Source: a virus
Reading direction: 5' to 3' (one strand)
DNA: 64,000 nt
IMG/VR virus record: IMGVR_UViG_3300037486_000490
Location: 1 to 64,000 of that record
This document shows positions 55,523 through 63,431 of the stretch, piece after piece. Under the pieces are notes generated by a model, which was given only the letters and a program-made list of their open reading frames with translations, ran no database searches and was not told the origin of the DNA. Each line of letters starts with the position of its first letter. Position 1 is the stretch's first letter. A program made the translations under genes and the position numbers.

Positions 55523-55733
55523 CCGTACTTCTTCCGTACTCGTAATGTACTTTGTTCTCGTAACTTGTTGATAATCAATCTAAGCGGCGGTGCGGACGGG
55601 ACTCGAACCCGCGACCCTCGCAGCGATTTTGAAGGGTATAACCTTAAATTCTTCTCCAAAGTATCAGGGTATACCTTTATAAAGTTCCGAATAAAAGTTT
55701 TCCGAGTACGGATCAAGTACGGGAAGCCGTACT
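55523..55733. mobile_element. attP-like attachment site with a tRNA-Asp 3'-end core and arm-type repeats
   Basis: 55587-55617 reverse complement GGGTCGCGGGTTCGAGTCCCGTCCGCACCGC (T-arm and 3' acceptor strand only); CCGTACT at 55523, 55534 and 55727; AGTACGG at 55705 and 55716; directly upstream of the integrase. Confidence 0.8.
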
Positions 55734-55752: not shown

Positions 55753-56949
55753 ATGCCCAGCATTAAAGTCAGAAAGTATGGAAACTCGGTTTACGTGATC
55801 TATGTTCATCGTAACCAAAAACTGAAAGTTTACACCGGGGTAAAGGTCGATGACCTGCATTGGAACCTGTCTGTCCCGAGGAAGAGCTGTCCCAACTACG
55901 ACAATGTGCTTGCCCAAATTAACCAGATGGAAACACGCCTTCTGAACGCTTCCATGAAGGTACGTACGATGGGTATAGACCCGACAGTTGACAGGGTGAG
56001 GATGGAGCTTAAAGCACAGGAGGTGGTAAAGGAAGCGGAGAAACCCTTCTGGGAAATATACAACACCTATCTCCTTACGCGCACCTTCAAACCTCCGACA
56101 CGCCAAAAGGTGGAGATCCATAAGAAGATGCTGCAGTTCTTCTGCACCTGGTCGGGCTATGAGTTCGATATAAAGACCTGGGACAAGCTCGCCTTTGGCA
56201 GGTTGATACAATACCTATTGTTCACACAGAAGATGGCAGACTCAACTATAGACCGGTTGGTAAGAGGTGTGAAAGCTTTTCTCCGGTTTGCTTATCCTAC
56301 GGTTGACCTGTCGTGGATGAAGTACAAACTCCTGAGTACTGAAGAGACCGTGGTGGCACTTTCGGATGGGGAGCTTAAGTATCTTATCGACGCTGACCTC
56401 GGCGGTTACCTGGAGAAGACCAGGGACCTATTCGTGTTCCTCGCCACTACCGGTATGCGCTTTTCAGATAGCCAGCTGTTCAATCCGACCTGGGTAACCG
56501 AGGAACAGATACTGGAATTCAACCAGCATAAGACCGGCGGGAAAGCTTATCCTCCCTTATACGAGGTATCCCGCAGGATCCTCTCCAAGTACAACGGTAT
56601 ACCTCCCCAGATCTCCAACCAGAAGTTCAATGATTACCTGAAAGTCCTGTTTGAGGAGCTTAAGTTCTCCAGATCCATTACCTCTAACATCGTCCGCAAT
56701 AAGGTTGTATTCACCTCAGTTGCCCCATTAAGTGAGGTAATCTCCTCACATACAGCGCGTCGTACATTTATTTCTCTCTGCCTGTCCCATGGAATACCGA
56801 TCCAGGATGTGATGAAAATGTCTGGTCACGCCGATTATAAGTCCATGAGACCCTATATCCGAGTCACCCGTCAGCACCTTCGTACAGTAGCCGATAGGTG
56901 GAATCCCGGGGCAACTGTAGAAGGATCAGGAAGTTCGGGAGGTTTGTAA
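55753..56949 (+). CDS. int: Tyrosine integrase (Bacteroidota type with arm-binding and SAM-like domains)
   Basis: RDLFVFLATTGMRFSD, ISNQKFNDYLK, SSHTARRTF, MSGH, PY catalytic R-H-R-H-Y set. Confidence 0.93.
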   Translation: MPSIKVRKYGNSVYVIYVHRNQKLKVYTGVKVDDLHWNLSVPRKSCPNYDNVLAQINQMETRLLNASMKVRTMGIDPTVDRVRMELKAQEVVKEAEKPFWEIYNTYLLTRTFKPPTRQKVEIHKKMLQFFCTWSGYEFDIKTWDKLAFGRLIQYLLFTQKMADSTIDRLVRGVKAFLRFAYPTVDLSWMKYKLLSTEETVVALSDGELKYLIDADLGGYLEKTRDLFVFLATTGMRFSDSQLFNPTWVTEEQILEFNQHKTGGKAYPPLYEVSRRILSKYNGIPPQISNQKFNDYLKVLFEELKFSRSITSNIVRNKVVFTSVAPLSEVISSHTARRTFISLCLSHGIPIQDVMKMSGHADYKSMRPYIRVTRQHLRTVADRWNPGATVEGSGSSGGL

Positions 56950-58727: not shown

Positions 58728-58997
58728 ATGACTGAAGATGCATTTACAAAACCCCGGGTCATCATCTTCCCGGGGATCCCCGATAAGACCGGCGGATACC
58801 GAACCTTGAACAACAAGCCTCTTGCGCACAGGACGGCTTTTTATTGCAAGGTCATAAAAGGTGATGAGAACATGGGCGAAGTGTTCACTCCCGAAGAGAT
58901 AGACTATATCATTAAGGACTATGTAGTGAACAAGCTCAACAAGGAATTGGTGAGTAAATCTTTGAGGGATATTATCGTCCATATAAACAACTCATGA
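58728..58997 (+). CDS. Hypothetical protein
   Basis: A-rich translation initiation region; coupled operon. Confidence 0.6.
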   Translation: MTEDAFTKPRVIIFPGIPDKTGGYRTLNNKPLAHRTAFYCKVIKGDENMGEVFTPEEIDYIIKDYVVNKLNKELVSKSLRDIIVHINNS

Positions 58998-59263
58998 GTA
59001 TCAAACATCTTATGAAAGATCTACTTCCTTCCGACCTTCCTTTTCCAAAAAAAGCTGACGACCTCATTGGGCGGGTTATTCCATGTCCCCACCCCAATTG
59101 TGGTACGATGCTGGATATAGGAAGCGGAGGAGTAGAACATTTTGGACATCGTCACATATTCAAGATGAGTCTGGAGGAGCTGTTTCAGATGACCTTATGG
59201 GGTAATAAGATAGATCGCCTGCTATGGTTTGGCAATAAAACACAATCTCATAATAACACTTAA
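58994..59263 (+). CDS. Hypothetical zinc-binding protein
   Basis: CPHPNC...H..H; ATGA overlap with upstream gene. Confidence 0.6.
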   Translation: MSIKHLMKDLLPSDLPFPKKADDLIGRVIPCPHPNCGTMLDIGSGGVEHFGHRHIFKMSLEELFQMTLWGNKIDRLLWFGNKTQSHNNT

Positions 59264-59411: not shown

Positions 59412-59915
59412 ATGAGTAAACGAGCAGCAAAAATAGCAATAGAAAAAGGATTTTACATTGATGATGCTGGGGAGGTATGGATCAATGGACGTCCTAAAGT
59501 CACTTCCCTTCGTAAAGGGTATAAGCGATTTACTATTAGGGATGCAGAAAGCAGAATGATTCCAGTTTTAGTACATCAACTACAAGCACTCCAGACGTAC
59601 GGAGATGAGTACTTAAAACTTGGTGTTGTAGCCAGACATCTTGATAATAATCCTCTTAACAATTTTAAAGCAAATATTGCCATTGGCACTGCCCACGATA
59701 ATGCAATGGATAATCCAAAGGAGGATAGGATAGCCCGGGCAACTCATGCTGCGTCTTTTAATAGGGCATTCACTGATAGCATAGTTGCTGATATCAAACG
59801 GGATAGAATAGACGGTATGACCTACAGACAACTCATCTTGAAGTACAATACTTCAAAGGGTACGTTGTCTTTCCTGTTTAACTTTTCAAGTTACTACAAA
59901 CGAATAGAAGTATAA
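59412..59915 (+). CDS. HNH homing endonuclease with C-terminal HTH
   Basis: GYKRF, VHQLQA, ARHLDNNPLNN...NI..GT..DN. Confidence 0.85.
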   Translation: MSKRAAKIAIEKGFYIDDAGEVWINGRPKVTSLRKGYKRFTIRDAESRMIPVLVHQLQALQTYGDEYLKLGVVARHLDNNPLNNFKANIAIGTAHDNAMDNPKEDRIARATHAASFNRAFTDSIVADIKRDRIDGMTYRQLILKYNTSKGTLSFLFNFSSYYKRIEV

Positions 59916-59920
59916 TGGTG

Positions 59921-59988
59921 ACCCTCTTAGTTTAATGGTAGAATCCCGGTTTAGCTGGGAGATGCGAGTCCGACTCTCGCAGAGGGTT
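59921..59988 (+). tRNA. tRNA-like gene with a shrunken anticodon loop (identity undetermined)
   Basis: ACCCTCT/AGAGGGT acceptor stem, TAGTTTAATGGTAGAA D-arm, CCCGG-TTTAG-CTGGG arm, GCGAG-TCCGACT-CTCGC T-arm. Confidence 0.6.
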
Positions 59989-60006
59989 CTAACTAAATCA
60001 ACAAAA

Positions 60007-62166: not shown

Positions 62167-62327
62167 TATATTACCAGTCCAAACATCACATATTTATATC
62201 ACTCTAATACTATTTTATCCAATTATGTCAAAATAGTATCATTGATAACCGTACAGTCGGTACACCCTGGGTGAAGAGCTTGAGCCACTTATCAATGTTT
62301 CCTTTGCAACCAACTAAATCAACTAAT

Positions 62328-62549
62328 ATGATAAAGTTCTTAAAAATAACACTTGTAGTATTAATTGTAGCTCTGATACTGCTTACAATTAATATGCTGG
62401 TAACAATTCTCAATCCCAGCAATTACCAGCGTATAGAAGCAGCCAAGAAAGATGGACGCTGGGAGAAATTTGAAACATGTATTGAGTATCATCCAAGCGA
62501 CTACGTATGTGACAGCTGTTGGAATGCTATCATACTCCAAAAGAAATAA
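62328..62549 (+). CDS. Small membrane protein with a C-terminal Cys motif
   Basis: MIKFLKITLVVLIVALILL TM segment; C...CDSC. Confidence 0.6.
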   Translation: MIKFLKITLVVLIVALILLTINMLVTILNPSNYQRIEAAKKDGRWEKFETCIEYHPSDYVCDSCWNAIILQKK

Positions 62550-62551
62550 TC

Positions 62552-62677
62552 ATGGAAGAGATTAAGTCACAGTTAACCCACCTAACAGTAGGGGAGCTTG
62601 AAGAGCTTGTAAAGTTTATCAACAAAATGCTCATAGCTCGTATCTTCCAAAGACAATCGCCCTTGCATCAGCTCTAA
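62552..62677 (+). CDS. 41-aa helical hypothetical protein
   Basis: Hand translation MEEIKSQLTHLTVGELEELVKFINKMLIARIFQRQSPLHQL*. Confidence 0.5.
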   Translation: MEEIKSQLTHLTVGELEELVKFINKMLIARIFQRQSPLHQL

Positions 62678-62772
62678 TGCGTCACGCGTAGTGATAGCCA
62701 CTGTCTGGTGTAGGGCATTTATACCAGGTCGATGGGCTCATAACCATTGTAATGACGAGATCCTGGTAACAT

Positions 62773-62906
62773 GTTGAGATGGCGAAATAGGGAACCGCTA
62801 ATAATGATGTATGTCAGACCCAGGACAAGGTGATAGCTTGAACTCATTATTAATTATCTGAAAGTCTTAAAGATAAATGCAGGTTCGAATCCTGCTCTCA
62901 ACACCA
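62773..62906 (+). ncRNA. 134-nt tRNA-like RNA (Leu-type scaffold) with an expanded anticodon arm
   Basis: GTTGAGA/TCTCAAC+A+CCA; GCG..CGC D-arm; TAATAATGA/TCATTATTA stem closing 36 nt; TTATCT/AGATAA variable arm; GCAGG-TTCGAAT-CCTGC T-arm. Confidence 0.75.
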
Positions 62907-62926
62907 ACTAACTAAACTAATATGCG

Positions 62927-63091
62927 ATGGAAAAAGAAGTAATCAAGCTTGTCACCATATCCCTGTGTGACAGCTGCACCAAGAGTGAAATATGTGCACT
63001 CACACCTGAACAGCAGGAATTAATACCAGTACGTACATGCTCATCACATGTAGCAATACCTGAAATTGATGATGATACTGTTAAATTATAA
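62927..63091 (+). CDS. 54-aa Cys-containing hypothetical protein
   Basis: Hand translation MEKEVIKLVTISLCDSCTKSEICALTPEQQELIPVRTCSSH...*. Confidence 0.5.
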   Translation: MEKEVIKLVTISLCDSCTKSEICALTPEQQELIPVRTCSSHVAIPEIDDDTVKL

Positions 63092-63431
63092 TTGCCATCC
63101 GACAGCCGGAACTGAAGTAAGTCGTATACTCGTATTCATCAAGAGTTTCACACTCGCTGGCAATTTACTTGGATTATTGCGAGTAATGCCTATGCTTCAA
63201 TAGCATACGGTATAGATCATAATCCTCTTTGACCACCTTGAGCTGGTGGTATATAAATAAGCTCCCAAATACGGAATGAATACCTGCCGAAATACGGATT
63301 TGTTCTGCTTATACCAGGGTAGCCTTGATATCAATGAACGGCGTTGACGTTGAAGCTTAATCTATCCCTGGTTATTTTATACCGATGCTTTAGCCATTGG
63401 TATTTTTGCTCATAGGTTAGGTTTAGGTTGG

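Follow-up and report, generated by a model that had tools for sequence, protein, structure and literature searches.

The phage element at 62773-62906 (+) is built on the frame of a leucine tRNA and is not a decoding tRNA. Our results lean towards a gene for a non-decoding, tRNA-shaped RNA, a putative member of a family of leucine-type phage shells of the same kind as RNA1 of phage T5. The earlier note on this DNA had proposed a non-decoding tRNA mimic; the absence of a canonical anticodon loop bears this out, as does the fit to a model of anticodon-less leucine-type phage shells. The window analysed (positions 1-64,000, one strand, of IMG/VR record IMGVR_UViG_3300037486_000490) is part of a 92.5-kb phage record whose capsid, portal and terminase all have matches among phage families. 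The capsid protein shares 33-34% identity with those of crAss002 and other crAss-like phages of Bacteroidota, and DNA of this stretch is found in sediment and freshwater-sediment metagenomes. The carrier is probably, on these matches, a distant crAss-like phage from sediment, and its host is probably a member of the Bacteroidota.

Architecture of the element

Read directly from the letters, the element is a class II cloverleaf of 134 nt with the following parts (source of each assignment in brackets).

62773-62779 (+): 5' strand of the acceptor stem, GTTGAGA, pairing 7/7 Watson-Crick with 62896-62902 (sequence and RNAfold)
62780-62798 (+): U8, G9 and a leucine-type D arm (sequence, family D-arm pattern and high posterior on covariance model R1)
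62799-62853 (+): replacement for the anticodon arm (sequence and RNAfold)
62854-62878 (+): long variable arm, followed by A and U48 (sequence and RNAfold)
62879-62895 (+): T arm, GCAGG / TTCGAAT / CCTGC (sequence, RNAfold and model R1)
62896-62906 (+): 3' strand of the acceptor stem, TCTCAAC (62896-62902), A73 (62903) and encoded CCA (62904-62906) (sequence)

The features of a canonical tRNA that are present are the 7-bp acceptor stem, the discriminator, a T loop of the GTTCRANYC type and a D arm that carries A14 and G18G19. The D arm reads GCG / AAATAGGGAAC / CGC at 62782-62798, with a 3-bp stem and an 11-nt loop; the loop holds A14, A15, G18, G19, A20a and A21, U8 is also in place, and U48 can make a Levitt pair with A15. 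The variable arm consists of a 6-bp stem, TTATCT/AGATAA, and an 11-nt loop (62854-62876). The minimum-energy fold of the 134 nt by RNAfold is this cloverleaf with all four shell helices perfect, and the whole-element fold has a z of -1.94 against shuffles. A pattern of D arm plus T loop has one match in the window and 0.00 in shuffled sequences. The first description of the element, which listed an acceptor stem, a discriminator A, CCA, a T arm, a variable arm and a long stem at these positions, is correct by both sequence and RNAfold.

At the position of the anticodon arm there is no 7-nt loop; an 8-10-bp stem around 31-36 nt is found there instead. From its 5' end the replacement arm comprises T26, an 8-bp A/T-rich stem, a bulged U, 2 bp, about 31 nt closed by these pairs and, at the end, AA. 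The stem pairs 62800-62807 with 62844-62851 (8 bp, all A/T) and encloses 62808-62843 (36 nt); it is 9 bp long when T62799-A62852 (T26-A44) is counted, and RNAfold adds two pairs beyond the bulged U. The insert had been described as structured. An inner TGTC/GACA pairing (62812-62815 with 62824-62827) does exist within the enclosed 36 nt, as does another weak inner hairpin, AGGU/GCUU, but the description has no statistical backing, as the arm (60 nt) does not exceed shuffled sequences in stability (z of -0.49). None of the K-turn, hammerhead, box C/D and Ro-binding motifs fits the insert on inspection by eye, and in the rest of the 92.5-kb genome the insert recurs only as 10-13-mers at chance level. 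The insert also contains a 9-codon ORF (AUGAUG...UGA), which we treat as due to chance.

These features bear on whether the element is simply a dead tRNA-Leu gene, that is, a functionless gene with a recent insertion or replacement in its anticodon arm that has not yet decayed. We consider this doubtful. The lack of significant structure in the insert is in keeping with such a gene. However, every helix of the shell is perfectly Watson-Crick paired and the bases of the tertiary contacts are all intact; no leftover of a leucine anticodon loop lies beside the insert; and both lower arms are atypical, with a stem of 8-10 bp made up of A/T only and a variable loop of 11 nt.

Decoding, splicing and the tRNA gene region

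Standard searches pass over the element. ARAGORN in default mode does not call it in the window, where it does call a tRNA-Met (59323) and a tRNA with anticodon UUA (59921). Rfam gives no RF00005 match on 62773-62906 even at E<=10 (gathering score of 29 bits), and the same two tRNAs score 39-42 bits in that run. Neither ARAGORN in tmRNA mode nor Rfam finds a tmRNA on the element, and Rfam reports no ribozyme or intron family there, RF00028 included. The catalytic core of a group I intron needs about 200 nt or more, and the statement of the earlier note that the 36-nt insert is too small to be a group I intron or a tmRNA holds.

A decoding tRNA with a short spliced intron, such as the GUC model with 37 nt predicted by ARAGORN, is highly improbable and is the least likely of the rival explanations. 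It has in its favour that the intron option of ARAGORN returns a model at all and that one family member, L038, resembles a tRNA-Leu(UAA) split exactly between U34 and A35. The intron option had been put forward as a check on the element; when run, it returns two conflicting, non-canonical models for a single element, namely Asp GUC with a 37-nt intron in genomic context, in which nucleotide 26 is dropped and the intron lies within the anticodon, versus Met CAU with a 38-nt intron for the excised element. When T62799 is taken as position 26 (the standard register), any excision leaves G or A at position 33 and never U33. The insert also falls short of group I length and, as noted, matches no ribozyme or intron family in Rfam. 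Protein-spliced introns of archaeal and eukaryal tRNAs have a bulge-helix-bulge at the exon-intron borders and involve a splicing endonuclease and a ligase. A bulge-helix-bulge was sought in the fold of the element and only single-base bulges were seen, and the EndA, RtcB and RNA ligase families had no match among the phage genes of the 92.5-kb record. Across the family described below, intron mode gives about 20 scattered 'anticodons', with Leu called in only 9/60. The suggestion of an unusual spliced tRNA therefore finds no support, for want of a bulge-helix-bulge, of a splicing or ligase gene in the record and of a U33 after any excision in the standard register.

The element is the only one of the four tRNA-type genes of this phage to encode CCA; the other three do not. 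Several observations concern these neighbouring genes. The tRNA with anticodon UUA at 59921-59989 (+), which scores 41.8 bits as an Rfam tRNA, would decode UAA, a stop codon. In the sister phage, a different tRNA(UUA) immediately follows the DNA ligase gene, at the place of tRNA-Tyr(GUA) in the phage carrying the element (loci compared: 59921-59989 (+), G000 67057-67131 and L023:11219-11293). The long ORFs of the phage end in all three stop codons, and wholesale recoding is not evident; to our knowledge, the published recodings in crAss-like phages use TAG and TGA and not suppressors that read TAA. An HNH endonuclease gene (59412-59915 (+)) lies between tRNA-Met and tRNA(UUA); phage tRNA regions are a usual place for homing endonucleases. 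Just upstream of tRNA-Met, at 58882-59100 (-), there is a sub-threshold match to a group I intron (16.9 bits, E of 0.7, gathering score of 50). A tyrosine integrase gene (55753-56949 (+)) adjoins a T-arm-like fragment at 55596-55612 (-), which scores 13.3 bits on the shell model, and in the sister phage G001 the same fragment is present near both contig ends (134-150 and 92058-92074). This arrangement would fit a temperate crAss-like phage with an attachment site in a tRNA gene of the host.

Relatives and the family of anticodon-less shells

The closest phage in IMG/VR, the sister phage G001 (92,245 bp, rated complete), has about 70-78% DNA identity around the slot of the element and is syntenic on both sides, with a 33-nt block upstream and a homologous small ORF downstream. 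In the slot itself there are 112 nt of unrelated sequence and no shell, and a search of the whole of G001 detected no shell gene (best match, 16.6 bits). Exact patterns for the 3' half and D arm of the element had 0 matches in IMG/VR; a D-loop-plus-T-loop pattern had one match, which was false, in JGI metagenomes; and among 185,579 species-representative genomes the 3' half had 0 matches and a 19-mer from the D arm had 4 chance matches that were not tRNAs. A blastn search of GenBank phages with the element gave generic T-arm matches only, and relatives fetched through the integrase and DNA ligase contained no copy of it. Near-identical strains are present in two freshwater-sediment DNA runs, in fragmented contigs that do not span 62202-63139; among the sequencing runs found to contain the stretch there is no RNA run. 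This copy, as judged by sequence searches, is a singleton among the collections searched.

A singleton that is absent from the sister phage is also what a dead tRNA-Leu gene may look like, and in a related phage (L025) there is a normal tRNA-Leu(UAA) whose acceptor stem is similar and whose ACCA is encoded. Against this stands the finding, set out below, that over 100 further phages preserve this design and that their shells are perfect.

The 33-nt block upstream of the slot (62672-62704) is 91% identical to that of the sister phage, within flanks of about 70-78%. In both phages it lies inside a hairpin (62658-62718 (+); L002:7392-7456) whose outer stem differs in sequence and still pairs (z of -2.9 and -2.2). 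The hairpin, which lies just upstream of the tRNA-like slot, may be conserved as an RNA or protein-binding structure.

To define the family, IMG/VR was scanned for a leucine-type D arm (motif TGGCGRAAT.GG.A..CGC) with a T loop 60-90 nt later; in an ordinary tRNA-Leu, about 37 nt separate the two. The scan gave at least 111 loci, with more than 100 leucine-type phage shells that have no anticodon arm, and only 3 of the loci listed were ordinary tRNAs (beside another tRNA). There were 97 unique sequences among the matches listed; 83/97 have 7/7 acceptor pairing, with 47 different acceptor strands among them, and 67/83 of these listed shells with a full acceptor stem have a discriminator A. An encoded CCA, as in the element, is present in only 7/83. 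The middles, from D stem to T stem, range from 57 to 87 nt (median of 72; 80 in the element) and are mutually unrelated. An Infernal-type check for covariation, which the earlier note had envisaged across homologues, was carried out on the shell family and not on close homologues: in a 65-member alignment, all 7 acceptor pairs and 3 T-stem pairs change on both sides. As these 65 shells were selected for full acceptor pairing, their paired percentage is partly by construction, and 83/97 is the unbiased figure.

A covariance model, R1, was built from the 65 shells with the element left out. On this model the element reaches 67.5 bits (E of 4e-15) and T5 RNA1 52.6 bits, compared with 30-40 bits for ordinary tRNA-Leu genes from related phages and 24 bits or less for all other tRNAs. 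By frame and architecture, so far as sequence can place it, the element belongs to the leucine-type shell family. Its D loop is a variant (AAATAGGGAAC versus GGAATTGGTAGAC in the family), and its cargo has no similarity to that of any of 227 other shells. No shared neighbour protein was found across 108 shell loci, where the biggest cluster comprises 13 loci, all from near-identical phages. For 93 unique cargos, antisense matches of a cargo to its own locus are no more frequent than same-sense matches. One shell of the AGTCAGG type, a very short query, had no blastn match in GenBank phages at E 1e-3. The occurrence of the same design with perfect shells in more than 100 phages points to a maintained class rather than to accidents; the shells could have arisen repeatedly from tRNA-Leu.

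Two further observations concern individual shells. The shell at L038:2870-3005 (+) retains the stem of a leucine anticodon arm and both halves of the loop, CTT and AAAA, with about 51 nt between U34 and A35. This split site is the position of the group I intron in cyanobacterial tRNA-Leu; an insert of about 51 nt is too short for such an intron. Shells L043 and L048 and near-identical loci have different acceptor stems and a common cargo plan of three helices, which differ in sequence yet still pair (GAGTA/TACTC; ACCC/GGGT versus ACG/CGT; GAGCTTT/AAAGCTC versus TGTAAT/ATTACA). This suggests, at the level of sequence, that their cargo is a conserved pseudoknotted module.

As a control, viral contigs of IMG/VR were scanned for the commonest class I D arm with a gap of 48-78 nt. 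At least 116 elements were obtained, and in 89 of the 116 listed the acceptor stem is intact and no ordinary tRNA is called. In viral DNA, tRNA frames with inserts are hence not confined to leucine ones. The class I shells (loci L146-L260, for example L163, L173, L209 and L219) have a replaced anticodon region, and many of those listed carry a recurrent cargo of one hairpin followed by ACAGCAA. Some class I matches are tRNA-Tyr genes of giant viruses with short eukaryote-style introns after GACTGTAG.

Among known RNAs the nearest likeness is to RNA1 (NC_005859, 30501-30644) and RNA2 of phage T5, both annotated as 'tRNA-like stable RNA with unknown functions'. Like the element, they are phage encoded, are situated among tRNA genes and combine a leucine-type D arm, T arm and acceptor stem with a long hairpin in place of the anticodon arm and a 6-bp variable arm. 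However, T5 RNA1 has no encoded CCA, has one unpaired position in the acceptor stem and shares no lower-arm sequence similarity with the element, and T5 infects E. coli whereas the element is carried by a distant crAss-like phage from sediment. RNAC and RNAD of phage T4 may resemble the element in shape as well. As with the element, these are small phage RNAs from a tRNA gene region; they are detected on Northern blots and their role is unknown (PMC3014915, PMC9697503).

The element shares with bacterial class II tRNA-Leu (RF00005) the acceptor stem, A73, CCA, the D/T elbow, A15-U48 and the long variable arm, but it lacks a 5-bp stem closing a 7-nt loop and has neither U33 nor an anticodon. 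The tRNA-like domain of tmRNA also joins a chargeable top half to other RNA in place of the anticodon arm. However, tmRNA has no D stem, an alanine-type G3-U70 pair, pseudoknots and a tag reading frame within several hundred nucleotides, and the element has a D stem and no G3-U70. Y RNAs of the YrlA type (Ro60/Rsr) are likewise non-decoding, contain a tRNA-like module and are also found in phages, but their ends form the Ro-binding stem whereas those of the element pair as an acceptor stem that CCA follows; Rfam detects no Y RNA on the element and no Ro60/TROVE gene was found in the phage. In engineered tRNA scaffolds, foreign RNA takes the position of the anticodon arm, and processing and stability are provided by the frame. 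These scaffolds are man-made and resemble the element in the position of the insert; by analogy, we infer that nature may use a tRNA frame for processing and stability in the same way.

Expression, charging and possible roles

The element lies within a rightward block of small early/middle genes. A promoter motif of the Bacteroidota type, TAnnTTTG, is not present directly upstream; the nearest is at 63401, immediately past a terminator-like hairpin (63379-63403). Because the element has no promoter motif of its own, we propose that it is probably transcribed within a longer, rightward early/middle transcript, and it would therefore need to be excised. Host RNase P and 3' processing enzymes would cut it out, leaving an RNA of about 134 nt, L-shaped and stable, to build up. 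The RNA would read no codon, and its two lower arms (about 54 nt and about 23 nt) may be a lineage-specific 'cargo' displayed on the frame.

The same setting raises an alternative in which the tRNA shape serves only as a processing signal: it would recruit RNase P and the 3' enzymes so as to cut the polycistronic transcript ahead of the ORF at 62927-63091, and the excised RNA would be a by-product. We judge this unlikely. This small ORF (+ strand, 54 aa, SLCDxC and further Cys residues) starts 20 nt past the element, had no family in a PHROG search and is conserved in the sister phage (L002:7553-7690), where it lies directly downstream of the same slot. The closeness of the element to the start codon of a conserved ORF agrees with a processing signal, as do the missing promoter motif and the position of the next terminator-like hairpin, at 63379-63403. 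Plant mitochondrial 't-elements' provide a documented precedent (PMC1920247). However, in the sister phage the homologous ORF stands without a tRNA-like element, and for a mere processing signal the full leucine identity set, an encoded CCA and long lower arms would be superfluous.

If the element is, as we favour, a gene for a non-decoding shell RNA, the encoded CCA would make it ready for charging; no gene for a CCA-adding enzyme was found in the phage record. LeuRS from E. coli requires A73, A15-U48, G18G19, A20a and contacts of the D loop with the T loop, and it still charges E. coli tRNA-Leu variants from which the anticodon and variable arms are both missing (PMC9976931). Charging by LeuRS in Aquifex can likewise do without the anticodon arm (PMC2377443). 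The identity elements for LeuRS are all present in the element (A73, A15-U48, G18G19, A20a, U8-A14 and U54-A58). Because the bacterial LeuRS enzymes studied read A73 and the elbow and not the anticodon or variable arm, the host LeuRS may charge this RNA; this is a reasonable inference by analogy, made with rules from E. coli and Aquifex that may not be those of the host. An explanation that appeals only to LeuRS ignoring the anticodon is incomplete, because class I frames show the same design.

Our best guess is that the RNA would occupy a host or phage protein that recognises the tRNA shape or the acceptor end. Two more specific roles had been suggested in the earlier note. A decoy for anticodon nucleases is unlikely, as the loop that such nucleases cut is missing from the element, and the role of aminoacyl donor finds no support, as L/F-transferase and FemAB-type genes were not found in the phage record. 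The RNA may instead be a decoy for enzymes whose substrate is the acceptor end or the tRNA shape. One version of this, which we regard as a slim prospect, is that a non-decoding look-alike, leucylated by the host LeuRS, absorbs a defence enzyme of the host directed at the acceptor end or the shape of tRNAs. Candidate targets would be nucleotidyltransferase toxins of the MenT/AbiEii type, pyrophosphokinases of the CapRel type and GNAT acetyltransferase toxins.

Shells of this kind have been annotated in T5 for decades; what is new here is a single clean copy with an encoded CCA. The element thereby adds to them a crAss-like, sediment-derived case with an encoded CCA and the full known LeuRS identity set, and it keeps open the idea that shell RNAs may be charged and yet never used in translation. 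More broadly, phage genomes contain many tRNA-shaped, non-decoding genes that are missed by standard tRNA finders and Rfam. If a defence decoy is indeed their role, the hypervariable arms of the family would reflect an arms race, and the 40-year-old puzzle of T5 RNA1, and perhaps that of T4 RNAC and RNAD, would resolve into a counter-defence system.
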